Part shown: one piece after another, positions 5,778 to 63,690 of the stretch
How positions within the stretch are numbered: the first letter of the stretch is position 1
How the letters are laid out: each line of letters begins with the position of its first letter
Assembly: GCA_037445715.1 (NCBI GenBank)
Contig: JBBIJZ010000004.1
Coordinates: 18,194-81,929 of the forward strand
Length of the DNA stretch: 63,736 nt
Origin: Verrucomicrobiales bacterium
GTDB lineage: Bacteria > Verrucomicrobiota > Verrucomicrobiia > Limisphaerales > J093
Direction of reading: 5' to 3'
Translations under genes and position numbers: made by a program
The notes under the pieces: model-generated
The model's database searches: none
Told to the model about the DNA's origin: nothing
What the model saw: the letters and a program-made list of their open reading frames with translations, nothing else

Positions 5778-6154
5778 GCGCGGTCCTTGCGGAGTTCCTC
5801 GAGTGTGCCGGCAAAGGGCTTCGGCCCGGCGTGCAGGCGGCGTCGGATGCTGGCCAGCAGCCCCGCGGCGCTCACACCGTAGAGGAGGGTGACCCCTGCC
5901 AGGACCAGCACAGGGGAAGTGTGCCACAGGGCGACCACCACGGTGGCGGTGGCGGCCACCAGGGTCAGCATCCCCAGCACCACCAGGGCCGCGGCCCGCA
6001 CCAGTAAGTCCAGGGCCCGGGCCTTTTCGACCTGCAGCTCGACGGCAAACAACTCCAGCCGGTGCTCGGCCGCGGCCAACACAGCTTCGGCGAGCCGGCG
6101 GAGAGCGCCGAACATGCCCCCTCCCGGCGTGGAACCGGATGCGGCGTCGGCCAT
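5756..6154 (-). CDS. YqjE-like inner-membrane protein (DUF1469 / holin-X-like family)
   Basis: 132 aa. The segment RLELFAVELQVEKARALDLL matches my recollection of E. coli YqjE (RLRLAVVELEEEKANLFQLL). It is followed by two TM helices and lies directly downstream of the elaB/yqjD-like gene. Confidence 0.7.
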   Translation of the reverse strand: MADAASGSTPGGGMFGALRRLAEAVLAAAEHRLELFAVELQVEKARALDLLVRAAALVVLGMLTLVAATATVVVALWHTSPVLVLAGVTLLYGVSAAGLLASIRRRLHAGPKPFAGTLEELRKDRACFGNKT

Positions 6155-6675: not shown

Positions 6676-9600
6676 ATGAAGCCGAGCAACATTGAACCGT
6701 TCCTCCTCCTGGGGCTGGCCATGCACGTGGGAATCCCCGCCGGGACCTGTCAGGTTCCACCCTCTTTTGTGGCGAGTGGTGGTGTGTACCTGCCGAACGA
6801 GGGGAATTACCCCTCAGCCGCCTGGGCCGACATCAACGGTGATGGCTGGGTGGATTTGTTCGTCACCGGCTCAACGGACAGCCCGAATCAAACGCGTTGG
6901 TGTGCCTTTTTCACCAACCAGCGGAATGGATCGTTCCTCTGGCAGCCGTGGTTTCCCGACGTAACGGCGGGCTGGAGCGGGTGCACGTGGGGGGATTACG
7001 ACAACGATGGCCACGTGGACCTTTTCCTGGCGCGAAGCACGGGCGGCCCGGGCCGGCTTTTCCGAAACCTGGGGGGCGGAAACTTCCGCATGGTCACCAC
7101 CTGGTTCGACCACGGGGAAGGGTGGATTGAGGAAAGACCCTGGGGCATTTGGGGAGCCGCCGGTGCCGCAGCTTGGGGAGATTTTGACGGAGACGGTTAC
7201 CTGGACCTGTTTCTGACCAATCCCTGGGGTCCCTGCAGTTTATGGCGCAACAGCAGGGACGGGTTGTTGGTGCCGGTGAGTAACAGCGAGGTGGAGCAAA
7301 TCATCGGAGGCCGCGGCTGTGCCTGGGGCGATTACGACAATGACGGGGATGCGGACCTCTTCGTTGCGGTCGGGGACAACCGCAACAATGCCCTGTTCCG
7401 CAATGAACAGGGGAGTCTGGTCCGCATCACCACCGGTGACGTGGTCAACGACGGCGGCTACTCCATGAGTGGCGCCTGGGGAGATTACGACCAGGACGGA
7501 AACCTGGACTTGTACGTGGCCAATCGCTATGGCCCCAACTTCCTGTACCACAACAATGGCGACGGCTCCTTCACACGGGTGACGCGGGGTCCTTTGGTCG
7601 AGGACGTGGCTGATTCCAACGGCTGCACCTGGGCGGATTACGACAATGACAGCCACCTGGACTTGTTTGTGGCCAATTTCTCCCGCTCATTCGAAGGCTT
7701 GGGAGAGGACCCGCTGGTGCTCGTCTATCGCAACCTGGGCAACGGAACTTTTCACCGGAAAACTGAAATTATCGAGGCGGGGGTGACGATGGCCACGGTG
7801 CTCGATGACTACGACCGCGATGGGTTTCTGGACCTCTTTGTGAGCCAGGGCAAAAATACGGAAACCGGCAGCCACACTTTCCGCAACCTGGGCAACTCCA
7901 ATCACTGGCTGCGTGTCCGGTTGCAGCCCGCGCCAGGCCGCACCCATCTCGGGTCGCGGGTCCGGGTGCAAACCGTGACCCAAGGAGCCCCCCGCTGGCA
8001 AATGCGTGAGGTGGTGGCCTACGACGGTTGGGGCGGCTCCAGCGATGTCGCCCATTTCGGCCTGGGTTCGGCTGAAGAAGTGGAGGAACTGCAGGTGCGC
8101 TGGCCTTCCGGCGCCGTCAGCACGTACCGTCGCGTGGCGGCAAACCAGTTGCTCACCGTGCGCGAAGCCGGACCACCGTTGCAGATCAGTCCCGACCACA
8201 ACTTCTTCTCGGGCAGCCTGCAGGTGACCATCACCAACCTCCGTCCGGACAGCGAAGTGCGGTACACGGTGGATGGTACCGAACCCACCGCCGATTCCCT
8301 GCTCTATTCGGGACCCATCTCGCTGACACGGTCCACCCTGGTGCGGGCGCTGCTGTTCAGGGGCGGGCAGGCAGTGTCGGAGGAGGTGAAGGCGCTATTC
8401 TTGGAGGAACGCTGGAACGACAGCATACCCGGCTCCTGGCGGGAGGCGCATTTTGGCCCTGCTTGGTTCGAGCGGGACGATGTCGCCGCCCTCGCCGATG
8501 CGGATGACGACGGGGCCAACACCCTGCAGGAATGGCTGGCCGACACCGACCCGACGGACCCCGCCTCGCACCCAGCCGAGCCTGTCCCGTTGCTGGTGCT
8601 GGACCCGCCCGGCGGCCAGTTCATGCTGGAGGTGAGTATCCGCACCGAATCCCCGGTGGCTGGTGCCGCCATCCGCTACACCGTGGATGGCTCCGAGCCC
8701 GGCGCCGGGGCCCCACTCCTCAGCGAGGGGCGTACCACGCTGACCGAATCGGCCACACTAAAGGCCCGGGCATTCTACGCGGGCAACCCGGTGTCGCCGG
8801 TGGTCGAGGGGACCTATACCATCCTGCCCGCGGCCCCGCGCTTTGTGCGGCAGCCGGTAGGTCATGCCGTCCTGGCCGGAGAAACCGTCGAAATGGTCGT
8901 CGAGGTGGCGGGCACGCCGCCGCTGACGTTTCAATGGTGGTTCCACGACACCGCTTTGCCCGGGGCCCACGAGCCGGTGCTCCGGCTGCCGCAGGTCCGA
9001 CCCGAGCAGGCCGGCATTTACCGGGTACAGGTGAGCAATGCCCTGGGAGCGGTGACCAGCGATCCGGCCGTGCTGGTGGTGAACGAGCCGCCGCGGATTC
9101 TGAGTCCCCCGCAAGCGGTCAGCGTCCCCGAGGGGGCGCCGGCCACCTTCACCGTGGAAGCCGCCGGAACTCCGCCTTTGACCTTTGAGTGGTACCGCAA
9201 CAACGTTCGCCTGCCCGACGCCCCCAATGCTCCGCGGTTCACCATCGCCGCGGTGACACCTGAAGATGCGGGCCAGTACCACGTGCGCGTGCTCAGCCCG
9301 TTTGGGGAGGCCAGCAGCCCGGCGGTGCCGCTCACCGTGACCGCCCCGCCCCTGCTGCCCGAGATTCTTGCCCATCCGGTCGGGGTCGAGCAAAGGGAGG
9401 GGGAAGCCGCGGCATTGGCCGTCACTGCCATTGGCGCCGGGCCGTTGACCTTCCAGTGGTACCGCAACGGTCAGCCCCTCCCGGAGGCCACCACCGCCCG
9501 CCTGGAATGGGCCGCGTTGCGACGGGACGACGCCGGGACCTACTGGGTCGAGGTGCGCAACACCGCGGGTAGTGTGGTATCCCAGCCCGTGGTGGTACGC

Positions 9601-11637
9601 GTACTTCCGCTCGAGCCGGGCGGCACGGTCCACTTCAACAACCGCGTGTCCCTGGCCGGCGTGGATGCCCCGGTGTTTGAAGCGGACGGGACCACGCCGC
9701 TGGCAGGTCCAGCCTACCTGGCCCAGTTGTTTGCCGGCCTCGCACCGGACGCCCTCGATCCGGTGGGCGCGGCGGTCCCGTTCAGCACCGGCGCGGCGGC
9801 CGGTTACATCGTAGGCGGAGTGGTGGTCATTCCCGGGGTGGCACCCGGCGCCCTGGCTCACGTGCAGATGCGGGTGTGGGAATCGGCCAAGGGACCGGAT
9901 TATGCCTCGGCCCTGCGGGCGGGTAGCAAGACGGGCGTTTCCGGCGTGTTGTCACTGACCACCGGCGGCGCCGGCGCCCCTCCTTCTTTTCCGGCGGAGC
10001 TGGTCGGTCTGGAAAGCTTCCGGATCGGGCTGGAAACCGAACCGCCGGTGGTGACGCTGACTTCGCCCGCCGCGGGCCTGACGGATGATGACCGCTTCGT
10101 CTTGGACGGCACGGCCGAGGACAATGTCGCCGTGGTCTCCCTGACCTGGGAATGGAACGGACGCCAGATGGGAGAGTTGGCGCTGGAAGGGGGGCGTTTC
10201 GAGCGGGCCGGCTTGCGGTGGGCGCGCGGTGAAAACCGGCTGCGGGTCCTTGCACGCGACCCCGCCGACAACACTGCCGAGGCCGAGGTGCTGGTGACGT
10301 ATGAACCTGCCCGCCTGCTCACCCTGAACCTGCCGACCGCGGTGCGGGAAGGGCATCGGCTCGCCAGCGATCTGGTCTTCCGCAACTCCGGGGGCGTGGG
10401 CGGCCTGACCGTGCTGTTGCAGTACGATCCCGAGCGCTTCCGCGATCCGGTCTGGACCTGGTCCGATGTCCCGGCGTTGAGCGCGGCGCTGACGGAAGTG
10501 AATCTGCAGGAAACCGGCCTCGTTCGCGCCACACTTTCCCTGCCCGGAAGCGAACTACCCGCCGGCGCGGTCCCCCTGGCCACCCTGTCTTTGCGTGCCC
10601 GCAGCGTTCCTGAATCCATGACCACGGAGCTGGTTCCCCTGCTTGCCGACGTGGCTGACCGCTCAGGCACCCGGCTCGATCATGGCAACGGTGCCAACGC
10701 CGGCAGCGTAGAAATCCTCCGCCGCCGACTGCCCGGCGACAGCAACGGCAACGACGCCCTGGACGTGGGCGATGCCGCCCTGATCCAGCGCCTGATCACG
10801 CTCCTGGACCCGGTCCGGACCTGGGATGTGACCGGCAACGACCTCAACGGCAGCCAAACCCTTGATCCGGGTGATGTGGTCAAGATCCTGCGGGTGGTTG
10901 TGGGCCTTGACCCAGCCCCGGCTCCGCTCGGGCCGGGCCGCGCCTCGAGGGGGGAGCGGGGCCGCCCCACACTCACTGCTCCCCGCCCGTCGGCGGCGCC
11001 GGCCACCACGCTGATGGTGGAGGCCGACCGCCTTGCGCTCTGGCCGGGAGAACGCGTGACGGTCCGCGTGCGTGTGGCCCGGCCGCCCGCAGGGCTTGCC
11101 GGTCTGAGCTTCCAGGTGCTGTACCCGCCCCACGGTCTCCAACTACTGAGTCCGGACCCGCCTTCGGCTGGTCCGGCGGTTCCCGCCGGCGCTACCACCT
11201 TGATCCGCACTGACGCGATCCGCGGTGTGGTGCACTTTGCCGCCGCTGGACCCGTCTCCTGGACCGAACTGGATGCCCCGGTGCTGGAGTTAACCTTCGT
11301 GGTGCTGCCTGCCAGCGGGACGGCCCCGATCGAGATGGAGGTCGTGGCGGGCCAGGTCACCTGGGACCACGGCTATGAAGTCGCCGCCCTGCCGCCCAGC
11401 GGGCTGGTGCTGCAACCCCAACTGCCGCGCTTGGGGTCGGTGACGCTCACCCCGGACGACGGCGTCGTGCTTGAATTGACGAGCGTGTCCGGCCTGACCT
11501 ACCGGCTCGAAGTCTCCGAGGACCTGCGCACCTGGGAGCCCTTGGACACGCGCGTCAGCACCGGCCAGACCCTGCGCTGGACCGATCCCGCGACAGGCCG
11601 GCCCGCCCGGTTTTACCGGCTGGTGGTGGTGCCTTGA
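6676..11637 (+). CDS. giant secreted multidomain surface protein: FG-GAP/VCBS repeats + ASPIC/UnbV (CRTAC1-like), FN3/chitobiase-C-like modules, 4 Ig (I-set-like) domains, cohesin-dockerin-cohesin region, C-terminal FYRL module
   Basis: ATG at 6676 preceded by AAGGAAGG, followed by a signal-like MKPSNIEPFLLLGLAMHVG. There are 8 or more repeats of W(G/A)D(Y/F)D(N/G)DG..DL(F/Y)(V/L). A UnbV_ASPIC-like block reads RVRVQT...VAYDGWGGSSDVAHFGLGSAEEVEELQVRWPSG. Four Ig units match P..F.W(Y/W).N......L......DAG.Y.V.V.N. Two dockerin-like EF-hand repeats (GDSNGNDALDVGDAALIQRLI, DLNGSQTLDPGDVVKILRVVVG) lie at about 10735..10908, flanked by cohesin-like beta domains. Confidence 0.85.
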   Translation: MKPSNIEPFLLLGLAMHVGIPAGTCQVPPSFVASGGVYLPNEGNYPSAAWADINGDGWVDLFVTGSTDSPNQTRWCAFFTNQRNGSFLWQPWFPDVTAGWSGCTWGDYDNDGHVDLFLARSTGGPGRLFRNLGGGNFRMVTTWFDHGEGWIEERPWGIWGAAGAAAWGDFDGDGYLDLFLTNPWGPCSLWRNSRDGLLVPVSNSEVEQIIGGRGCAWGDYDNDGDADLFVAVGDNRNNALFRNEQGSLVRITTGDVVNDGGYSMSGAWGDYDQDGNLDLYVANRYGPNFLYHNNGDGSFTRVTRGPLVEDVADSNGCTWADYDNDSHLDLFVANFSRSFEGLGEDPLVLVYRNLGNGTFHRKTEIIEAGVTMATVLDDYDRDGFLDLFVSQGKNTETGSHTFRNLGNSNHWLRVRLQPAPGRTHLGSRVRVQTVTQGAPRWQMREVVAYDGWGGSSDVAHFGLGSAEEVEELQVRWPSGAVSTYRRVAANQLLTVREAGPPLQISPDHNFFSGSLQVTITNLRPDSEVRYTVDGTEPTADSLLYSGPISLTRSTLVRALLFRGGQAVSEEVKALFLEERWNDSIPGSWREAHFGPAWFERDDVAALADADDDGANTLQEWLADTDPTDPASHPAEPVPLLVLDPPGGQFMLEVSIRTESPVAGAAIRYTVDGSEPGAGAPLLSEGRTTLTESATLKARAFYAGNPVSPVVEGTYTILPAAPRFVRQPVGHAVLAGETVEMVVEVAGTPPLTFQWWFHDTALPGAHEPVLRLPQVRPEQAGIYRVQVSNALGAVTSDPAVLVVNEPPRILSPPQAVSVPEGAPATFTVEAAGTPPLTFEWYRNNVRLPDAPNAPRFTIAAVTPEDAGQYHVRVLSPFGEASSPAVPLTVTAPPLLPEILAHPVGVEQREGEAAALAVTAIGAGPLTFQWYRNGQPLPEATTARLEWAALRRDDAGTYWVEVRNTAGSVVSQPVVVRVLPLEPGGTVHFNNRVSLAGVDAPVFEADGTTPLAGPAYLAQLFAGLAPDALDPVGAAVPFSTGAAAGYIVGGVVVIPGVAPGALAHVQMRVWESAKGPDYASALRAGSKTGVSGVLSLTTGGAGAPPSFPAELVGLESFRIGLETEPPVVTLTSPAAGLTDDDRFVLDGTAEDNVAVVSLTWEWNGRQMGELALEGGRFERAGLRWARGENRLRVLARDPADNTAEAEVLVTYEPARLLTLNLPTAVREGHRLASDLVFRNSGGVGGLTVLLQYDPERFRDPVWTWSDVPALSAALTEVNLQETGLVRATLSLPGSELPAGAVPLATLSLRARSVPESMTTELVPLLADVADRSGTRLDHGNGANAGSVEILRRRLPGDSNGNDALDVGDAALIQRLITLLDPVRTWDVTGNDLNGSQTLDPGDVVKILRVVVGLDPAPAPLGPGRASRGERGRPTLTAPRPSAAPATTLMVEADRLALWPGERVTVRVRVARPPAGLAGLSFQVLYPPHGLQLLSPDPPSAGPAVPAGATTLIRTDAIRGVVHFAAAGPVSWTELDAPVLELTFVVLPASGTAPIEMEVVAGQVTWDHGYEVAALPPSGLVLQPQLPRLGSVTLTPDDGVVLELTSVSGLTYRLEVSEDLRTWEPLDTRVSTGQTLRWTDPATGRPARFYRLVVVP

Positions 11638-52537: not shown

Positions 52538-55249
52538 ATGGATGCCAACAATCGTCCGCCCCCGGCCTTCGCCCGGTCCCGGCTGCCGTGGCTGGTCGCC
52601 GCCGCGGCGCTGGTACTTTACCTGGTGACCTTGAACCGCTGGCTGCAGCTCACCAGCCTGCCGCTGGTGGCGCGCGTGGCCGGCTGGGACCCCTCGCCCA
52701 ACCTCAGCGCGCCGTTGCTGTACCTGGTCACCCTCCCGGTGCGCTGGCTGCCGGGCAGCCTCCTGCCGGTGGCCCTGAACGTCCTGACCGCCCTGATGGC
52801 CGCGCTGACCCTCGGCCTGCTGGCCCGCGCGGTGGCGCTGCTGCCCTTTGACCGCACCCGCGAGGCGCGCCTGCGCGAGCGGGACGCGCAGGGGCTGCTG
52901 AGCCTTCCGCTGGCCTGGGTGGGACCGGCCTTCGCGGTGCTGCTCTGCGGCCTGCAACGCACCTTTTGGGAACATGCCACCGTGGCCACGGGCGAAATGC
53001 TGGACCTGCTGCTCTTCGCCGCGGCGGTCGGGTGCCTGCTCGAATACCGCCTGTCCCGGAACGAGACCTGGCTCACGGCGCTGGCGTTCGGTTACGGCCT
53101 GGCGGTCACGAACAACTACGCGATGATCGCCTTCTTCCCGGCCTTTGTCGTCGCCCTGGTTTGGATCATGGGCTTCGACTTCTTCCGGCTGCGCCTGATG
53201 GCGCGTCTGGCCGGGGCCGGGGTCGCGGGGTTGCTCCTGTACCTGTTGTTGCCGGCGCTGGCCGCGCTCTCGCCGCACGCCGCCGACGCTAGCTTCGGCA
53301 CCTACCTGCGCACGCAACTGGCGGCCCAGAAGGCGGCCCTGGCCGCGGTGCCGCCCTTTGCCGTGCTGCTCATCAGCCTGAGCACGGTGCTCCCGGTGTT
53401 TGTGCTGGCCCTCCGCTGGCGCCGCACCGCCGAGGACACCAGCCGCGCGGGCGCGGTAATGGCCGATTTCTTCACGCGCTTCGTGCACGTGGTCATGCTC
53501 GCGGCGGCGGTGTCGGTGTTTCTGGACCCGGTCTGGAGCCCGCGCGCGCTGGGCTTCGGGCGGGCGATGCTGCCGTTTTACTTCCTGGCCGCGCTGGCGG
53601 CGGGTTATTACACCGGCTACCTGCTGTTGCTGGCGCGCGACCCGGTCGGCCGCGCCGCGTACCTGGTCACCTCCGGGGGCCGGCTGCTGGGCCGGGCGCT
53701 GGCGGCGGCGGCGTTGCTGGCGGCGGTGGCGCTGCCCGTGACACTGGCCGCGCGCAACGGCCCCGCCGTGGCGGCGCTCAACGGCCGGGAACTGGCCCGC
53801 CTGGCGGACCGGTTGGTGGACGCGCTGCCGGCCCGGGACGCCTACGTGCTGAGCGACGACCAGACCAACCTGCTGCTGTTGGAAGCCGGTCTGGCGCGGC
53901 GGGGCGCGGCGGGCGCGCATGTGCTGCTGTGGTCGCGCCTGATGCCCTACCGGCTTTACCAGCAGCAACTGCACCGCCGCTACGGGGCGCGCTGGCGCTG
54001 GGGCGCGGAGAAGGATTTGCCGGAAGTGATCGCGCCCGCGGGGCTGGCCATTCTGGTGCGCAACGTGGCCGCCTCGAACCAACTGTTCTACCTCCACCCC
54101 AGCCTGGGGTACTACTTCGAGCAGGTCGAACAGGTGCCGACCGGCCTGGTGTTTCAGGTCCGGCCCCGCCCGGACGAGTTGACGCCGCGTCCGGCGTTGA
54201 CCGGCGAGGAGCTCGCCCGCGGCGAGGCGGCCTGGGAGGCTTTGCGGCCCGCCCTCGAGGCCCTGCCGGCGGCCGAACCCACCTCCCCGCTCGAGCGCCG
54301 CTACGTAAACGCCTTTTACGCGCGCGGGCTGGCCTCCTGGGGCGCCGCCGTCCAACGCGCCGGCCAGCCGGACCGCGCCCGCCGCTGGCTGGAGCTGGCC
54401 CTGCGCCTGAACCCGGCCAACACCGCCGCCCGGATCACCCTGGCCTTCAACGACGCCCTCCGCGCCGGCCGCCTCCCCGCGCTGGACGGCCCCACCCAGC
54501 CGGACTTGTCCGAGGAGCGTCGCGGCTGGGACCAACTGGTCGTCGAGGACGGGCTCTTTGACCACGTGCAGTTCTCCTATCGCCTGGGGCTGCTCTTTGT
54601 GGAAAGCGCCTACTTCCGCCAGGCGCTGACCGAGTTTCAGCGTGTGCGCGCGCTGCTGCCCGACCACCCCGAGGTGGGCATCTGGGAGCAGGTCATGATC
54701 GCCCTGAGCCGGTTCACCCGCGGCGAGGTGGCGGAGGCGGAGGCGCAGGTGCTCGAATTGCGCGCCCGGCATCCGCGCAACGTGAACGTGCTCGAGGCAC
54801 TCAACCAGATTTACCAGGCCACCGGCCGCCTCACCAACGCGCTGGAGACCCTGCGCGCCCAGATCGAACTCGAACCGGACAACGCCCGGGCCCTGCTCAA
54901 CCTGGCCGCGCTGCACATCCAGATGAAGAATTACGACGCCGCGCTGCCCCCGCTCAACACCCTGCTCAGGAACAACCCGAAGAACACCGCCGCCCTGCTC
55001 AACCGCGCCATTGCCCACCTCCAGGCCGGGCGGTTGGACGCGGCCCGCCAGGACTACGAGGCCCTCCGCGCGCTGGTGCCCGAGTCCTACGCGGTGTATT
55101 TCGGCCTGGGCGAGATCGCCCTGCGCCAGCAGGACAAGGCGGCGGCGTTGCAGCATTTCGAGACCTACCTCAAGTACGGCATCCGCGGCTCCGAGGAGTA
55201 CAAGAGCGTGGAAGAACGGATCCGCCGCCTGAAGGCCGGCGGCGCCTAG
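52538..55249 (+). CDS. large polytopic membrane protein (GT-C-like, DUF2723/PMT-like N-terminal half) with C-terminal TPR array
   Basis: About 11 TM helices lie in aa 1-430. The soluble C-terminal ~450 aa has multiple TPRs (ALLNLAALHIQMKNYDAALPPLNTLLRNNPKN, AALLNRAIAHLQAGRLDAARQDYEAL, YFGLGEIALRQQDKAAALQHFETYLKY). The GT-C assignment is tentative. Confidence 0.65.
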   Translation: MDANNRPPPAFARSRLPWLVAAAALVLYLVTLNRWLQLTSLPLVARVAGWDPSPNLSAPLLYLVTLPVRWLPGSLLPVALNVLTALMAALTLGLLARAVALLPFDRTREARLRERDAQGLLSLPLAWVGPAFAVLLCGLQRTFWEHATVATGEMLDLLLFAAAVGCLLEYRLSRNETWLTALAFGYGLAVTNNYAMIAFFPAFVVALVWIMGFDFFRLRLMARLAGAGVAGLLLYLLLPALAALSPHAADASFGTYLRTQLAAQKAALAAVPPFAVLLISLSTVLPVFVLALRWRRTAEDTSRAGAVMADFFTRFVHVVMLAAAVSVFLDPVWSPRALGFGRAMLPFYFLAALAAGYYTGYLLLLARDPVGRAAYLVTSGGRLLGRALAAAALLAAVALPVTLAARNGPAVAALNGRELARLADRLVDALPARDAYVLSDDQTNLLLLEAGLARRGAAGAHVLLWSRLMPYRLYQQQLHRRYGARWRWGAEKDLPEVIAPAGLAILVRNVAASNQLFYLHPSLGYYFEQVEQVPTGLVFQVRPRPDELTPRPALTGEELARGEAAWEALRPALEALPAAEPTSPLERRYVNAFYARGLASWGAAVQRAGQPDRARRWLELALRLNPANTAARITLAFNDALRAGRLPALDGPTQPDLSEERRGWDQLVVEDGLFDHVQFSYRLGLLFVESAYFRQALTEFQRVRALLPDHPEVGIWEQVMIALSRFTRGEVAEAEAQVLELRARHPRNVNVLEALNQIYQATGRLTNALETLRAQIELEPDNARALLNLAALHIQMKNYDAALPPLNTLLRNNPKNTAALLNRAIAHLQAGRLDAARQDYEALRALVPESYAVYFGLGEIALRQQDKAAALQHFETYLKYGIRGSEEYKSVEERIRRLKAGGA

Positions 55250-55255
55250 CCGGTC

Positions 55256-56437
55256 ATGCGCGTGACCCACGTCATCACCCGCCTCGTGGTGGGTGGGGCG
55301 CAGGAAAACACCATCGCCTCGGTCCTCGGCCTGCGCCGCCGCCCCGGACTGGAGGTGGACCTGGTGGCCGGGCCCACCACCGGCGCGGAGGGCTCGCTCG
55401 AAGCCCTGGTCGCGGGCGAGCCCGGCCTGTTCACGCGCGTGCCTTCGCTGGTGCGCGCGGTCAACCCCTGGCTGGACGCGCGCGCGTACCTGGCCCTGCG
55501 CCGGCTCTTCCGTCAGCGGCGGCCGGACCTGGTGCACACCCACAGCGGCAAGGCGGGGGTGCTGGGGCGCCTGGCGGCCCGCGCGGCCGGCGTACCCCTC
55601 ATCGTCCACACCATCCACGGACCGTCGTTTGGTCCGTTCCAGGGGTTCCTGGCCAACGCCCTGTTCAAGGCGGCGGAGCGCCGGGCGGGTCGGGTGACCA
55701 CGCACTTCGTGGTCGTGGCGCAAGCCATGGCCGAGCAGTACCTCGCCGCCGGCATCGGCCGCCCCGAACAGTACACGCGCATCGTCAGCGGCTTCCCCCT
55801 CGAACCGTTTCTCGCCGCCCGCCACGACCCGGACGTGCGCGCCCGCTGGGGGCTGGCGCCGGACGATTTCGTCGTGGGCAAGATCGCCCGCCTCTTCAAG
55901 CTCAAGGGCCATGACGAGCTCCTCACCGCCGCGCCCCACCTGGTCCGGCAATGCCCGTGGATGAAATTCCTGCTGGTGGGCGACGGCCCCTGGCGGGCGC
56001 GCCTGGAGGCCCGGGTCCGTGACCTGGGCCTCGCACGCCACGTGGTCTTCACCGGCCTGGTTCCGCCCGCGCAAATCCCCGAGCTGGTGGGCGTGATGGA
56101 CGTGGTGGTGCACCTGTCCCGTCGCGAAGGCCTGGCGCGGGCCCTGCCCCAGGCCCTGGCCGCCGGCCGGCCCGTGATCGCTTACGCATGCGACGGCGCC
56201 GGCGAGGTCTGCCGCAATGGCGAGACCGGTTTCCTCATCGCGCCGGGAGACCTGGCCTCGCTGCAACGGCGCCTGCTCGAACTGGCCGCCGACCCGCGCC
56301 GCCGCCACCAGTTGGGCCGGCAGGGGCAGGCGCTGGTGCGCGACTGGTTCCCGTTGGAGCGCATGATCGAGGACCTGTACCAACTCTACCTGCGCCTGGC
56401 CGCGGCAGCGGGGCGCGTCCGCCGCGAAACCCGGTAG
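55256..56437 (+). CDS. glycosyltransferase family 4 (GT-B fold)
   Basis: MRVTHVITRLVVGGAQE (N-terminal GT4 opening), then the C-terminal E(x7)E region SRREGLARALPQALAAGRPVIAYACDGAGEV...GETGFL. Confidence 0.85.
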   Translation: MRVTHVITRLVVGGAQENTIASVLGLRRRPGLEVDLVAGPTTGAEGSLEALVAGEPGLFTRVPSLVRAVNPWLDARAYLALRRLFRQRRPDLVHTHSGKAGVLGRLAARAAGVPLIVHTIHGPSFGPFQGFLANALFKAAERRAGRVTTHFVVVAQAMAEQYLAAGIGRPEQYTRIVSGFPLEPFLAARHDPDVRARWGLAPDDFVVGKIARLFKLKGHDELLTAAPHLVRQCPWMKFLLVGDGPWRARLEARVRDLGLARHVVFTGLVPPAQIPELVGVMDVVVHLSRREGLARALPQALAAGRPVIAYACDGAGEVCRNGETGFLIAPGDLASLQRRLLELAADPRRRHQLGRQGQALVRDWFPLERMIEDLYQLYLRLAAAAGRVRRETR

Positions 56438-56586: not shown

Positions 56587-56668
56587 TGGCCGCACTCCAA
56601 ACGCTGCGCGAAGATGCAGCGCCCGAGGCGGCGCGAAGCGTCTGGAGTGCGCCGGCTTGCCGGCGCTG
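56587..56668. repeat. pair of inverted REP-like elements (core AGCGT(T/C)TGGAGTGCG), one with an 8-bp GC hairpin
   Basis: 56591..56604 (GCACTCCAAACGCT) is the reverse complement of 56636..56649 (AGCGTCTGGAGTGC) with one mismatch. The hairpin GCGCCGGC-TT-GCCGGCGC is at 56648..56665. A third copy lies at 63651..63690. Confidence 0.55.
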
Positions 56669-56805: not shown

Positions 56806-57780
56806 ATGGGTTTTCCCCTCAACGTCTATGCCCTGGCCCTGGCCGGTGGTTTTTTCGCCACCCTGGCCGCCGTGCCGGTGTGGCGGGCGTGGTGTCGGCG
56901 CGCCGGCTGGGTGGATGAGCCCGGTCACCGCAAAATCCACCACACCCCCGTGCCCCTGGCCGGCGGGTTGGCGGTGCTGACCGGCCTGGCGGTGCCGCTG
57001 GCGCTGGGCGCGCTGGCCCTGCACCTGGGTTGGCTGGACCTGCCCACCCGCGGCGCCCTCGGTCACGGTTACGCCCGGCGCGCGCCGCAACTGCTGGCCA
57101 TTCTGGCCGGCGCGCTGGGCATGGTGGGGCTGGGGTGGTGGGATGACCGTTACGAGTTGCGCCCCGCCGCCAAGTTCCTCGGGCAGGTCCTCCTCGCGCT
57201 GGCGGTGGCGGCCGCCGGCGTGCGCGCCACGCTGTTCGTGCCCAGCCTGGGGTTCAGCCTGATGGTGACCACGCTCTGGATCGTGACCGTGACCAACGCC
57301 TTCAACTTCCTCGACAACATGAACGGCCTGTGCGCGGGCGTGGGAGCCATCGGCGCGGGCTGTTTCGCGCTCAAGGCGGCGGTGGGCGGACAATACCTGG
57401 TGGCGGCGCTGGCCCTGTTGGTGACGGCCGCGCTGGTCGGTTTCCTGCCGTACAATTTCCCCCGCGCCACGGTCTTCCTGGGCGATGCCGGCAGTCACCT
57501 GGTGGGGTACCTGCTCGCGGTGCTGGCCATTTTGCCGGACTACTACTCGCCCGCGCACCCGGTGCGCACCGCCGTGCTCAACCCGCTGCTCATCCTCGCC
57601 GTGCCCCTGGGCGACCTGGTGCGAGTGGTGCTCTGGCGCTGGCGACACGGCCGGCCGGTGTACGTGGGCGACACCAACCACCTCTCGCACCTGCTGGTCC
57701 GGCGCGGCCTGCGTCCCACCACCGCCGTGCTCCTGATCTGGCTCCTGGCCGCCGCGTTGGGCGCCCTGAGTTTTCTGTAA
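56806..57780 (+). CDS. polyprenyl-phosphate N-acetylhexosamine-1-phosphate transferase (MraY/WecA, glycosyltransferase family 4 of the PNPT superfamily)
   Basis: DD.YEL, NAFNFLDNMNGLCAG (the N.(F/I)D.(M/L)(D/N)GL motif) and FLGD.GS, with about 10 TM helices. Confidence 0.85.
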   Translation: MGFPLNVYALALAGGFFATLAAVPVWRAWCRRAGWVDEPGHRKIHHTPVPLAGGLAVLTGLAVPLALGALALHLGWLDLPTRGALGHGYARRAPQLLAILAGALGMVGLGWWDDRYELRPAAKFLGQVLLALAVAAAGVRATLFVPSLGFSLMVTTLWIVTVTNAFNFLDNMNGLCAGVGAIGAGCFALKAAVGGQYLVAALALLVTAALVGFLPYNFPRATVFLGDAGSHLVGYLLAVLAILPDYYSPAHPVRTAVLNPLLILAVPLGDLVRVVLWRWRHGRPVYVGDTNHLSHLLVRRGLRPTTAVLLIWLLAAALGALSFL

Positions 57781-59448: not shown

Positions 59449-60738
59449 ATGAAACACCCCTTGCTCCGTTTCGCCCGTGGACTCCGCGTGCTCGCGGGCC
59501 TGCTCGGCCTGCTGGCCCTGGCGCTCCCCGCGCGGGCCGAGTTCCGCGCCGCCATCGCCGTCCGCAACGTCACCCCCGATCCCCTCCTGCCGGTCTCCGG
59601 CGGCGTCGGCCCCTCGCATCCGACCACCCGCAAGGCGGGCGAGCTGACCGCGCGCGCGCTGGTGCTCGAAAACGACGGCACCCGCGTCGCCCTCGTCAGC
59701 GTGGACTTCCTCGGCTTCCCCGCCGTGCTGGGCGACAAGGTCCGCGCCCGCGTGTCCGGCATCCCGGCCACGAACATCCTCATCGGCGCCACCCACACCC
59801 ACAGCGCGCCGGACTGCTACGGCTTCCCGGACGAGACCGGCCGGACCGGCGCCGATTTGAAGTACCTGGAGTGGGTCTGTGCCCGGACGGCCGAGGCCAT
59901 CAACGAGGCGGTCGCCCGCCTGGCGCCCGCGGCGGTGAAGATCGCCACCGGCGAGGCGCGGGGCCGCATCGCCTACAACTACTACGCCGAGCAGCTCTAC
60001 GACCCCCGCTGCCACGTCATCCAGGTCCTGGACCCCGCCGGCCGACCCGTGGCCACGCTGGTCAACTACGCCATCCACCCCGAAGTGCTCGGCTCCCGCC
60101 AGGGCATCCTCAGCCCCGACCTGGTGGGACCGTTGTACGACCGGCTGGCCGAGGCCGGCGGCGGCACCGGCATCTTCCTCAACAGCGCCCAGGGCGGCAT
60201 GGTCACCGCCGACAACCGCCGCCCCGACGGCCGCGAGGTCAACGACTGGTCCGAGTGCGAGCGCATCGGCCGCCTGCTGGCCGACGAAGCCCTGCGCCTC
60301 GTGGCCGACGCCCCGGTTCAGAAAAACCCCCGCCTCCAGTGCTTCGCGCGCACCCTCGAGTTTCCCGTGGACTCGCCGCTGTTGCTGGCGGTGATGCGGG
60401 CCTCGCCGCTGGGCTTCCGGCCCGTGCGTGAGCGTCACGTGGCCACGATGCTGAATCTGGTCAACCTCGGCAACGCCCAGTTGCTCACCATCCCCGGCGA
60501 GGCCCTGCCCAACATCGGCTACTACCTCAAGCGCAAGATGGCCGGCGAACACAACCTGCTGCTGGGGCTGACCAACGACGCCTTCGGCTACATCCTCACC
60601 AAGGAAGACTGGGGCAGCTTCAAGCGCTACGACTACATCACCCGCACCTGCCTGGGCGAACTGACCGGCGAGATTTACGTCCGCGAAGCCCTCCACCTCG
60701 TCGCCGACTGTCCGCCGCCGGAACGCCTGGCCCCTTGA
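59449..60738 (+). CDS. secreted neutral/alkaline ceramidase-like hydrolase (N-terminal domain family)
   Basis: Signal peptide MKHPLLRFARGLRVLAGLLGLLALALPARA. LVSVDFLGF and IGATHTHSAPD resemble the zinc-site region of neutral ceramidase-type enzymes. Confidence 0.7.
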   Translation: MKHPLLRFARGLRVLAGLLGLLALALPARAEFRAAIAVRNVTPDPLLPVSGGVGPSHPTTRKAGELTARALVLENDGTRVALVSVDFLGFPAVLGDKVRARVSGIPATNILIGATHTHSAPDCYGFPDETGRTGADLKYLEWVCARTAEAINEAVARLAPAAVKIATGEARGRIAYNYYAEQLYDPRCHVIQVLDPAGRPVATLVNYAIHPEVLGSRQGILSPDLVGPLYDRLAEAGGGTGIFLNSAQGGMVTADNRRPDGREVNDWSECERIGRLLADEALRLVADAPVQKNPRLQCFARTLEFPVDSPLLLAVMRASPLGFRPVRERHVATMLNLVNLGNAQLLTIPGEALPNIGYYLKRKMAGEHNLLLGLTNDAFGYILTKEDWGSFKRYDYITRTCLGELTGEIYVREALHLVADCPPPERLAP

Positions 60739-60804
60739 GTCGCCGCGCCGCCGCCGGCGATTCCGGCTTGGCCGCCCCGACCCCGCCGCTCCTTTGTCAG
60801 CGTC

Positions 60805-63104
60805 ATGCCCCGGTTCACCCAAACCGACCAGACCGGCCGCGCCGGCGTTCACCTGGTGGCGCGACTCTGTTCGCAGATGGGCGTGATCTGGCGGGAGACC
60901 AGCGCGTCCGACACCGGCTTCGACGGCGAGATCGAGCTGACCCGCGGTAACCACGCCACCGCCCAAATCATCAAGGTCCAGATCAAGGCGGGCCGATCCT
61001 ACCGCCGCAGTGAAACCGCGGACCGCTTCGTTTTCCTGGCCGACGCGGACCATTTCCGTTACTGGACCGAGGCCACCAACCCCGCCATCCTCATCGTTTG
61101 CGACCCCGAGGCCGACCTCGCCTGGTGGGAAGACCTGAAGACCTGCGCCGCGCTGCACCCGGACCTCCTCCAGACCGGCCGGAAGCAGGTCAGGATCACC
61201 TTCGACAAGCAGCGCGACCGCCTCACCGGGGACAGCGCCGCGGCCCTGCGCCAGGTGTGTGCTCCCACCCTCGAAAGCCTGCTCCGGCCCCCGGCGGACC
61301 CCGCCGCCCGGCCAGGAGTTGGACCTGCTCAAGGCCAGGCATCGCGTCACCCGTCTCGTCGGCCGCGACTCCGACCTGGCCGACCTTTGGAAATGGCTCA
61401 CATCGCGCGAGCCGATTTCCGCGCGGTTGTTGGTGGGCGGCGCCGGCGCCGGCAAGACCCGCCTGGCGATCGAACTGTTGCGGCGCGCGCAGGCGAAGCG
61501 GAAGAACTGGCGCGCCGGCTTCCTCACCCCCGAGGGGCGCGACCGGCTCCGGGCCGATGCGTCGCGGCGCCGGGCCGGTTCCGCCGCCCCGCTGGATTGG
61601 GTCTGGCACGTTCCCACCCTGCTGGTGGTGGATTATGCCCAAACCCTGGCCCGCCCGCTGGCCGCGCTGTTCCGCACCCTGTTCCGCCAATGTCGGGCCG
61701 GCCGGCCCCCGCTGCGACTGCTGTTGTTGGAACGCGTCGCCGGCGACTGGTTCGAGGACCTGCTTCGGACGGAGGACAGCGACGGCCCCGGCCCCGTCCG
61801 CCTCCTGTTCCACCCGCCCCGGCCGGTCGAGCTGACGCCAATCCCGCCGGGGCCGCTGCGCCGCCAACTGCTGGCCGACACCCTCGCCCAAGCGGCCCAC
61901 CTCGGCAGGACGCCCCCGCCAGCGTTGCCCCCTGAAACCGACGCCGCCTTCAGCGAGTCGCTCCACCGCGCGGACTTTGCGAACCCGCTCAACCTCATGT
62001 TGGCCGCGCTGGCCGCCCCGGAGAGCGGGCTGACGGCCGCCCTGCGGCGGGAGCGGGTGGATCTGGCCGTGGACCTCGCCCGCAAGGAAGTCCGCCGCCT
62101 GGCCCGGTTCGCGCCCGTGGCCGATGACCCGGCCCGGCAACGCATCCTCGAACACCTGGCCGGCTGCGCGACCCTCGAGCACGGCTTCACCGTTGCGGAA
62201 CTGCGGCGGGCCCTCGAGGAGGAACTGCCGGCTCTGGGCCTGGCATGGCCAGGTGGAACGGGTGACCTCGAAGCCGTACTCAAGCAGGCCCTGCCCGGCG
62301 AATTCCTGCCCGTGGCACCGGTCGAGCCGGACTTCATCGGCGAGGCGCTGGTCTTGACTGCGCTGGCCCGTCCCGACTGCCCCGCCGGACCGCAGCGTTG
62401 GACCAGTTGGTGCGCCACGGTGGAGCGCTGCGCCGGCCGTGACCCCCTGGCCACACCCGCCACGGTGCTGCACGCCTTCCAAAACTACGGCGGTCACTCC
62501 GAATACGGTGACGCCCTGCTGGCGGCCACCGACCGCCTCATCCAGACCGGCCTGAACGATCGGGACCCCACCCTGCTGATGGGCATCGAGCAAGCCCTCC
62601 CGGAATCAACCCTCACCCTTCGCGCCCGGGCGGCGGAGATTACCCGGACGCTCTACCGGCGGTTCAAGGGGGCATACGCTGCGGGTCAAAAAGTACTCAA
62701 GCCCGAGGTTGCCCGACTGGCCAGTAATCTGGCGATAGTGGTTGAGCGACCTGGGCCGGCCGGAGGAGGCCCTGGCTGCCGCCCAGGAGGCGGTGAAGAT
62801 TCGACGGGCGTTGGCCCGGCAGAACCCCAATCCGTTCTCACCTAAACTGGCCCGGTCCCTGGGCACGCTGGGTCATGTGTTCGAGAAGCTCGAACGTCCC
62901 GCAGACGCGTTGTCCTGCTTCCACGAAGGCATCCAGGTGCTGCGATCCCATTTCCTCGCGCTGCCGGAGGCCCATGCGCCGGTCATGGAGGTTTTGGTGA
63001 CTGACTACTTGCGGCTGACCAAGGCCCTCAGCCAGCCAAAGGACGAATCGTTGCTGGCACCCATCCTGGCGCGGTTGAAACGCCGGCAGCGGCGGAGCAA
63101 ATGA
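60805..63104 (+). pseudogene. frameshifted DUF4365 (PD-(D/E)xK-like)-STAND P-loop NTPase-TPR gene (antiviral STAND/NLR-like architecture)
   Basis: Three consecutive ORFs in three frames read through as one protein. Frame 1 (60805..~61300) has DUF4365-like motifs (GRAGVHLVARLCSQMGVIWRE...DTGFDGEIEL...IIKVQIKAG). Frame 2 (~61310..~62738) has Walker A GGAGAGKTRLA (61436..61459) and Walker B LLVVDY. Frame 0 (62742..63104) has TPRs (LSDLGRPEEALAAAQEAVKIRRALARQNP). Past each junction the old frame becomes Pro/Arg/Gly junk. Junction 1 lies in C-runs at 61288..61308 and junction 2 at 62736..62744. Confidence 0.65.
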
Positions 63105-63135: not shown

Positions 63136-63546
63136 TCAGGCGCCCCCGCCCAGGCTGTCCATGAACTGCCGGGGCTTTTGCATCAGCTCGATCTCGTAGC
63201 CCTCCGGGGCGTCAATGAAGGCGAAGCCGCTGCCGTCGGGTCGCAGCGTGGGACCGTCCGAGTACTTCAGACCGAACTTCTCGAGGTGCCGGGCGAAGGC
63301 CTCGAGGCTTTCGACCTCGAAGGCCAGGTGGGTGAGGTCCGGTTGCACCTGCACCGGCCCGCTGGCGGGGTAGCAGCACAGTTCGATCGTTTCCTCGCTC
63401 AGCGGGGCCTTCAGGAAAACCAGCTCGGAGCCGCGGGGGGATTTGTGGCGGCGGACTTCCTGGAGGCCGAGCACTTCCTTGTAAAAGCGCACGCTGCGTT
63501 CGAGGTCGTTCACGCGGTAGCGGGTGTGCAAGAGTCGGGTAACCAT
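63136..63546 (-). CDS. VOC-family protein (glyoxalase I / lactoylglutathione lyase-like)
   Basis: MVTRLLHTRYRVNDLERSVRFYKEVLGL..., ELCCYP, HLAFEV and PEGYEIELMQ form the typical glyoxalase I pattern. Start at ATG 63546. Confidence 0.85.
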   Translation of the reverse strand: MVTRLLHTRYRVNDLERSVRFYKEVLGLQEVRRHKSPRGSELVFLKAPLSEETIELCCYPASGPVQVQPDLTHLAFEVESLEAFARHLEKFGLKYSDGPTLRPDGSGFAFIDAPEGYEIELMQKPRQFMDSLGGGA

Positions 63547-63650: not shown

Positions 63651-63690
63651 CGCGGAGCGTTTGGAGTGCGCCAGCTTGCTGGCGCTTTCC
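63651..63690. repeat. REP-like element copy with hairpin GCGCCAGC-TT-GCTGGCGC
   Basis: Aligns to 56631..56668. The two stem differences (G->A and C->T) are compensatory and keep the 8-bp hairpin (63668..63685). The reverse strand translates to ...SKLAHSKR..., a repeat signature I recall from Verrucomicrobia/Planctomycetes intergenic regions. Confidence 0.5.

Follow-up and report, generated by a model that had tools for sequence, protein, structure and literature searches.

A twice-frameshifted gene in a Verrucomicrobiales genome is probably the recently inactivated remnant of an NLR-like nuclease-STAND-TPR protein

We analysed a 63,736-nucleotide (nt) stretch of the genome of a Verrucomicrobiales bacterium (contig JBBIJZ010000004.1, positions 18,194 to 81,929; hereafter the window) and, within it, a locus at 60805..63104 where three overlapping open reading frames (ORFs) appear to be the pieces of a single gene encoding a nuclease, a STAND-type nucleoside triphosphatase (NTPase) and a TPR array. 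Positions are those of the window, and features lie on the + strand unless stated otherwise. The ORFs occupy frame 1 (60805..61935), frame 2 (61259..62845, overlapping both of the others) and frame 3 (62742..63104, with its TGA stop at 63102..63104), and only parts of them look coding. Homology supports frame 1 over 60805..~61305, frame 2 over 61304..62755 and frame 3 over 62742..63092; the tblastn queries for frames 2 and 3 were the intact relatives P0012 and P0016, and the frame 3 piece matches the C terminus of P0012. Periodicity of G+C at third codon positions (GC3) agrees, assigning 60796..61257 to frame 1, 61313..62590 to frame 2 and the region near the end to frame 3. No in-frame stop occurs within the three supported segments, and joining them yields a protein of 765 amino acids (aa). 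An earlier note on this DNA, made from its letters alone, had read the three ORFs as one protein of ~765 aa, and tblastn and GC3 periodicity back the same three frames.

The first segment (60805..61305, frame 1, opening with an ATG at 60805) corresponds to a DUF4365/DREN-type PD-(D/E)xK nuclease domain. The second (61310..62740, frame 2) comprises the P-loop NTPase, the helical and winged-helix domains and the start of an alpha-solenoid, and the third (62742..63104, frame 3) the C-terminal end of the TPR/alpha-solenoid together with its cap. Three-frame translation and DNA alignments place the change from frame 1 to frame 2 (frameshift 1) at 61289..61309, in the C/G-rich linker between nuclease and NTPase. 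The earlier note had put a 1-nt lesion at 61288..61308; the change of frame is there, but its size is not, since the window is 2 nt shorter than each of three orthologous loci (L001, L003 and L006). The SLL..DLLK linker measures 13 codons in all three and 12 1/3 in the window, so that frameshift 1 would most simply be a 2-nt deletion.

The change from frame 2 to frame 3 (frameshift 2, 62736..62741) consists, as had been proposed, of one extra base, here within GATAGTGG, in the first recognisable TPR motif, NLAxxLSxLGR; the orthologues do not have that base. At this site the window reads GCGATAGTGGTTG where orthologues have GCGAT-CCGGTTG, a difference of one inserted base and two neighbouring substitutions, and L006 reads NNLANRLSALGR in frame. 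Frameshift 2 lies outside any homopolymer run and cuts within helix H629-648 as predicted by an AlphaFold2 (AF2) model. Over 2013 nt the window and L006 differ by three indels in all: the 2-nt loss (~61289), a 3-nt in-frame indel and the 1-nt gain (62736). Past the breaks, reading in the old frames would continue out of frame for 210 and 35 codons, to stops at 61935 and 62845, and neither downstream piece has a credible start accompanied by a ribosome-binding site. Neither frameshift site in the window contains a slippery site, a stop codon or a repeat tract. A search for repeat tracts, local hairpins and promoter-like sites that might explain the positions of the indels found none, and three terminator-like matches were no more than expected by chance.

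Four orthologous loci were compared: the window, L001 (on the same contig as L005, from the Verrucomicrobiales metagenome-assembled genome [MAG] ESF170215_bin_74), L003 (JGI 3300059600) and L006 (from the uncultured Verrucomicrobiota MAG binchicken_co107_206). A fifth entry, L002, is a Logan assembly of run SRR11582161 and has the same sequence as L001. In L006 the gene is one open frame that passes through both break points of the window and continues for 672 codons to the end of the contig; the fused gene is therefore real, and the search for intact orthologues that the earlier note had called for found one. Since the L006 contig ends at residue 672, the last 95 residues lie beyond the span over which any orthologue shows an intact frame. 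L006 also has a different large ORF upstream, not ceramidase-like (L006 4132..5922), with a stop-to-stop frame that ends ...ADWKSATQQVGNLRYARKTRLQ (5850..5920); the surroundings of its gene are thus different or rearranged.

The other two orthologues carry frameshifts of their own. In L001, the DUF4365 domain and the NTPase lie in one 665-aa ORF, which is disrupted 12 codons downstream of the position of frameshift 2 by a 5-nt tandem duplication (GCTCC GCTCC) that recurs in L002. After this duplication the upstream ORF ends 8 codons on at a TGA that overlaps a GTG (GTGA) opening a 102-aa TPR ORF (L001 9966..9998), and AGGAGG stands just upstream of that GTG, an arrangement resembling translational coupling; it is built from conserved AQEAV codons and may be a coincidence. 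Compared with L006, L003 has gained one base at each of two positions, 8525 and 8874. Its longer TPR array (L003 9000..9876), whose repeats are very similar at the DNA level, has at least four additional frame changes in the space of roughly one repeat unit (~9045-9200) and another near 9640, which could reflect heavy decay or mis-assembly of the repeats. No frameshifting indel is common to any two of the window, L001 and L003, and the neighbouring genes are intact in both L001 and L003. Further orthologues were sought in several ways: a genome-contig search with the repaired single protein gave none, one with an alignment as the query gave only L005 and L006, a metagenome-contig scan gave only the distant locus L004 (35% identity), and exact-protein look-ups of the window ORF1, the called ORF2, the ceramidase-like protein and the glyoxalase gave no other contigs.

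Substitution patterns indicate how long the reading frame was maintained. By the Nei-Gojobori method, the ratio of nonsynonymous to synonymous substitution rates (dN/dS) is 0.26-0.47 for the three segments (0.45 for the C-terminal TPR piece, window versus L001); in the two flanking genes it is lower, at 0.20-0.21 (ceramidase-like) and 0.10 (glyoxalase). The window and L001 are 84.2% identical at the nucleotide level (15.8% differing) and are separated by four indels in 2296 nt, three of them frameshifting, which makes indels some tenfold rarer than a rough expectation for neutral DNA. The low dN/dS, the scarcity of indels and the absence of in-frame stops together argue for constraint until recently, that is, for purifying selection that would have preserved the frame through most of the divergence, with lesions that are either recent or errors. 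An ancient pseudogene shared by these lineages was ruled out by the lineage-specific indels, the dN/dS of 0.26-0.47 and the few indels overall.

We regard it as rather unlikely that the gene is intact in the organism and that one or both indels are sequencing, assembly or consensus errors, arising for instance from strain mixtures in the bin or a miscalled C-run. Homopolymer sequencing errors, which the earlier note had offered as an explanation, suit the C-rich setting of frameshift 1, within CCGGCCCCCGGCGGACCCCGCCGCCCGG, but do not suit frameshift 2, which is not in a homopolymer and has two substitutions adjacent to it. Errors would be compatible with the lack of inactivating substitutions or in-frame stops in any segment and with a dN/dS well below 1; the related L001 contig is covered just ~7.8x (from its SPAdes title), and consensus calling can be misled by the variation between strains that is common in defence genes. 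On the other hand, both lesions fall in one 2.3-kb gene of the 63.7-kb window, for which two random errors have a chance of ~0.04; frameshift 1 involves 2 nt, whereas errors usually add or remove one; and independent assemblies of the orthologues carry other frameshifts specific to this gene (the 5-nt duplication in L002 as well) beside intact neighbours. The rest of the window keeps its frames, as had been claimed, because the other same-strand frame switches resolve into borders between separate complete genes, such as those between an M50 peptidase and a CoA-binding protein, or among HisF, HisI, an unknown gene and TrpE. Genuine inactivation, for which the earlier note had argued, is thus favoured: both lesions fall in a single gene, frameshift 2 is not in a homopolymer, and the orthologues carry different frameshifts.

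Each broken copy carries one indel within ~48 aligned nt around the motif NLAxxLSxLGRxxEAL: +1 in the window, +1 in L003 and +5 in L001. In simulations with uniform placement such clustering has p ~0.005-0.016, a post hoc value that rests on few events in three lineages. One explanation, to which we give little credence, is that the frameshifts are not random decay and that the region is a hotspot, mutational or selective, at which the sensor becomes uncoupled from the nuclease-STAND module; if true, it could represent an evolutionary off-switch that silences an autotoxic NLR-like gene yet leaves it repairable, or a protein shortened by its sensor could be selected for a new role. Less probable still is that the split is tolerated or used, with the pieces made as separate translation products that assemble, or with ribosomal or transcriptional slippage or reversible indels restoring the full-length product, to give a low-level or switchable NLR-like system. 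The clustering would agree with such a system, as would the position of frameshift 1 exactly in the inter-domain linker, the GTG start in L001 that overlaps the upstream stop behind AGGAGG, and the dN/dS of the C-terminal TPR piece, still at 0.45. However, the indels are not alike in size or sign (+1, +1, +5) and would need different recoding in each lineage, the window sites offer no slippery site, stop codon or repeat tract for it, and L006 is in frame with no recoding at all. Moreover, the 210 and 35 out-of-frame codons would have to be accommodated along with downstream pieces that have no credible start and ribosome-binding site, and frameshift 2 interrupts a predicted helix. Phase variation, a speculative suggestion of the earlier note, was rejected together with programmed frameshifting: slippery sequences and repeat tracts are absent, the indels are lineage-specific, and L006 is in frame.

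We then examined the domains that the joined segments encode. Residues 12-151 match Pfam PF14280 (DUF4365) with E=5.1e-28 (98.3 bits against a cut-off of 24.3), and the match spans profile positions 2-138 of 139, so that the DUF4365 assignment made in the earlier note holds over nearly the whole profile. The PADLOC model Aga_REase, which describes the restriction-endonuclease-like head of Argonaute-associated proteins, matches the same region with E=3.7e-37. The head also aligns by sequence with solved DUF4365/DREN-APAZ proteins (PDB 9qbq, 9qbp and 9jsb): its acidic motif GFDGEIEL (D40, E42, E44; 60916..60939) aligns to GTDGIIEL of 9qbq and 9qbp, and its putative QxK active-site motif, codons Q59-I60-K61 in VQIK (60979..60987), aligns to VQVK of the same two structures. 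The QxK and acidic residues are invariant across three orthologues. The corresponding residues of TmuRE, Q62 and K64, were identified by alignment as potential active-site residues, and their mutation gave an inactive form (PMC10810196). The membership of the PD-(D/E)xK superfamily that the earlier note had suggested is therefore probable from the alignable SPARDA DREN structures and the retained QxK site. DUF4365/DREN is described as a non-specific DNase that is activated upon assembly in SPARDA (PMC10810196; PMC12205087). When the 163-aa DUF4365 domain alone was the query, a word-indexed protein search gave no matches, although P0001 and P0004, which are 72-80% identical to it, are in that database, so a negative from such a search says little for short queries.

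The central segment contains a P-loop NTPase. Walker A reads GGAGAGKT (61436..61459), with G214, G216, K217 and T218 nearly invariant in a 62-sequence family alignment; the Walker B strand reads LLVVDY (61619..61636), and LLLLER (~61718..61735) ends in a sensor-1-like arginine, R310. Both R310 and the Walker B aspartate, D276, are nearly invariant in alignments A3 and A6. The corresponding family motifs in the 62-sequence alignment are GxAGxGKTRLA for Walker A, TLxVVDYA for Walker B and LRLLLLER, with a nearly invariant final R. In the helical domain after the NTPase, where a GxP motif is expected, the protein has PLNLMLAAL (family PLNLMxAAL, GxP-like). The AF2 model is confident for the NTPase-helical-TPR part, with a predicted local distance difference test score (pLDDT) >90 from residue ~165 to the end, and a domain-only model has a pLDDT of 90. 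Foldseek searches with the full model return as top matches the Avs5 filament 9nc9 and the STAND-TPR protein 6mfv, followed by ORC/Cdc6, SAMD9, CED-4, Apaf-1, NRC3 and ZAR1; the isolated NTPase-helical-winged-helix module returns ORC/Cdc6 and the plant NLRs NRC2, NRC3 and NRC4, with query-normalised TM-scores (TMq) of 0.35-0.45.

Profile methods say less about this region. The core has no match to Pfam NACHT or NB-ARC, an NCBIfam search of the central region gave nothing useful, the Avs models of PADLOC-DB v2 gave 0 matches to the window pieces, P0001, P0012, P0016, P0056 and P0071, and sequence and profile searches of the PDB returned just TPR proteins and a weak RFC match for the NTPase. We therefore call the central module STAND-like and place it near the nSTAND5 group on the basis of its fold, motifs and relatives rather than of a passed hidden Markov model (HMM) threshold; of the STAND NTPase proposed in the earlier note, the P-loop and the Walker A and B motifs stand as described, but no HMM threshold supports the STAND label. 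The C-terminal 120 aa score above the Pfam cut-offs for TPR_12 (33.4 bits) and TPR_1 (29.4 bits), in agreement with the TPRs noted before.

An exhaustive HMMER search with the orthologue P0001 recovered 4561 clusters (50% identity) at E<=1e-3, nearly all of which share the NTPase-helical-TPR core, and TPR_10/TPR_12 arrays occur in nearly all relatives. The N-terminal heads vary: TIR in P0056 and P0099, SIR2 of the ThsA/LmuA type in P0027, a trypsin-like protease in P0071 and P0083, and, in further relatives, heads with no Pfam match. A DUF4365 head on this core was found only in the small orthologue group, and a 50%-identical DUF4365 head is carried by a NACHT-HEAT protein, P0228. Among 30 family members, 19 match nSTAND_NTPase5 and 28 match AAA_16 at E<=0.01, and many more distant relatives bear the precomputed label PF25199. 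Defence-associated STAND clades are called by the swapping of effectors on a conserved NTPase-repeat chassis. A 2026 survey distinguished 589 prokaryotic STAND clades, of which 198 are defence-associated with high confidence, most of them with TPR-like sensors (PMC13581612). The architecture is thus already a known kind; the combination of DUF4365 with an nSTAND5-like NTPase and TPRs is absent from the PADLOC v2 models.

Comparison with known systems places the protein among several of them. Like the Avs and bacterial NLR-like proteins (Avs1-5, Avs7, bNACHT), it has an effector head, a STAND-type NTPase with helical and winged-helix domains and a TPR-like sensor; the Avs5 filament 9nc9 is its best full-length fold match, and its relatives swap effector heads. 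It differs from them in an NTPase core with no match to PADLOC Avs, Pfam NACHT or NB-ARC models, in a sensor of ~230 aa versus the sensors of at least 400 aa analysed in PMC13581612, and in being a frameshifted copy outside a defence island. The Avs/NLR-like organisation suggested in the earlier note accordingly stands for the effector-NTPase-repeat layout but not for any match to an Avs HMM. With the nSTAND_NTPase5 (PF25199) clade it shares the matching family members and common C-terminal TPR_10/TPR_12 arrays, but it scores only 13.4 bits against a cut-off of 34 and is best termed a member of a neighbouring or divergent clade. With the DREN-APAZ protein of SPARDA it shares the nuclease family PF14280, the GxDGxIE and QxK motifs and the sequence matches to 9qbq, 9qbp and 9jsb, and the assembly-activated nuclease described for SPARDA follows the same logic that we propose here; unlike SPARDA, its nuclease is fused in cis to a STAND NTPase-TPR module in place of APAZ and a short prokaryotic Argonaute, and the system has no guide-nucleic-acid sensing. 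The uncharacterised DUF4365-NACHT-HEAT protein P0228 likewise joins its head to a STAND NTPase and a helical-repeat sensor, but its NTPase is of another clade, with NACHT above threshold, and its sensor is HEAT rather than TPR.

The gene lies between a ceramidase-like gene (59449..60738) and a convergent glyoxalase/VOC-family gene (63136..63546, - strand), the neighbours named in the earlier note. The glyoxalase is clear (Pfam Glyoxalase, E=2e-18), and the ceramidase match is below threshold (Ceramidase_alk, 28.6 bits against 32.1). L001 and L003, but not L006, likewise have the ceramidase-like gene as their upstream neighbour, and the glyoxalase gene was also found in L001. Upstream of the glyoxalase gene, in intergenic DNA, is a perfect GC-rich hairpin, GCGCCAGC-TT-GCTGGCGC (63668..63685); a copy with two mismatches (GCGCCGGCTTGCCGGCGC) lies in another intergenic gap (56649..56666), against 0.01 matches expected from shuffled sequences, and the pair may be a small dispersed element resembling repetitive extragenic palindromes (REP). 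Farther upstream, a 903-aa protein (52538..55249) has a TMEM260-like O-mannosyltransferase N-terminal region and C-terminal TPRs, and its gene, followed by two glycosyltransferase genes (55256..56437 and 56806..57780), looks like part of a cell-envelope glycosylation cluster.

Such surroundings bear on whether the intact gene encoded an immune sensor at all. A housekeeping or regulatory STAND/AAA+-TPR protein with a nuclease-fold domain, for instance a signal-transduction ATPase or one of transcription-regulator type, would be at home among metabolic and cell-envelope genes, with the same upstream neighbour in three genomes; the NTPase core has no PADLOC match, and defence and non-defence STAND clades are interspersed (PMC13581612). 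We nevertheless find this reading improbable. Relatives exchange well-known suicide-type heads on the same core (TIR, ThsA/LmuA-like SIR2, trypsin-like protease and DUF4365); elsewhere DUF4365 is familiar as SPARDA's collateral DNase, and it is found again on a NACHT-HEAT protein; the protein lacks a DNA-binding output domain; and repeated loss fits a dispensable gene.

Taken together, these observations make it probable that a single-chain, NLR-like gene of the antiviral-STAND type, from an uncharacterised effector-STAND-TPR clade, was inactivated recently and that the locus is what remains of it. The intact ancestor would have carried a DUF4365/DREN nuclease at its N terminus, a STAND-type NTPase with helical and winged-helix domains at its centre and a TPR alpha-solenoid at its C terminus. 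By analogy, binding of a trigger (presumably a phage protein) by the solenoid would be followed by nucleotide-dependent oligomerisation of the NTPase module, which would gather the nuclease heads, and the clustered heads would cut DNA indiscriminately, leading to abortive infection; such activation would have its parallel in SPARDA, where assembly activates a nuclease of the same family. Loss of 2 nt in the nuclease-NTPase linker and gain of 1 nt in the first TPR motif would then have left three parts in three frames, and since these lack clean restart signals the window gene is most likely non-functional. That the gene has been broken independently in related lineages is in keeping with the repeated loss of a defence gene that is costly or dispensable.

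Several points weigh against this reading. Either indel could be an assembly error, frameshift 1 is situated in a C-rich stretch (CCGGCCCCCGGCGGACCCCGCCGCCCGG), and a dN/dS below 1 is also expected of a gene that still functions. AF2 models residues 1-150, the DUF4365 part, poorly (pLDDT 35-55), because the alignment in this region contains only three sequences. The central 470 aa yield just sub-threshold Pfam matches to AAA_16 and nSTAND_NTPase5, the latter at the 13.4 bits given above, and no STAND, NACHT or Avs HMM scores above threshold on the window protein. ORC/Cdc6 and RFC score as well as or better than NLR-type folds (E ~1e-6, TMq 0.35-0.45), so the fold matches fail to separate STAND from ORC/Cdc6-type AAA+ proteins. 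The neighbours are of housekeeping type (glycosyltransferases, an oxidoreductase, and the ceramidase-like and glyoxalase genes), with no defence island, and the defence function, the trigger and the nuclease activity are all ones that we infer.

The annotation should join the three ORFs into a single gene flagged as frameshifted rather than list three hypothetical proteins, and an L006-type or repaired gene would be a reasonable candidate for defence assays. A SPARDA-type DNase head on an nSTAND5-like NTPase-TPR core adds one more combination to the prokaryotic STAND repertoire. The sole unusual aspect of the locus is the recurrence of independent, locally clustered frameshifts, on the basis of three lineages. 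If the indels are real, they provide a clean natural case of the repeated and recent loss of an NLR-like gene in free-living Verrucomicrobiota, one relevant to what it costs a bacterium to carry immune sensors armed with a nuclease.

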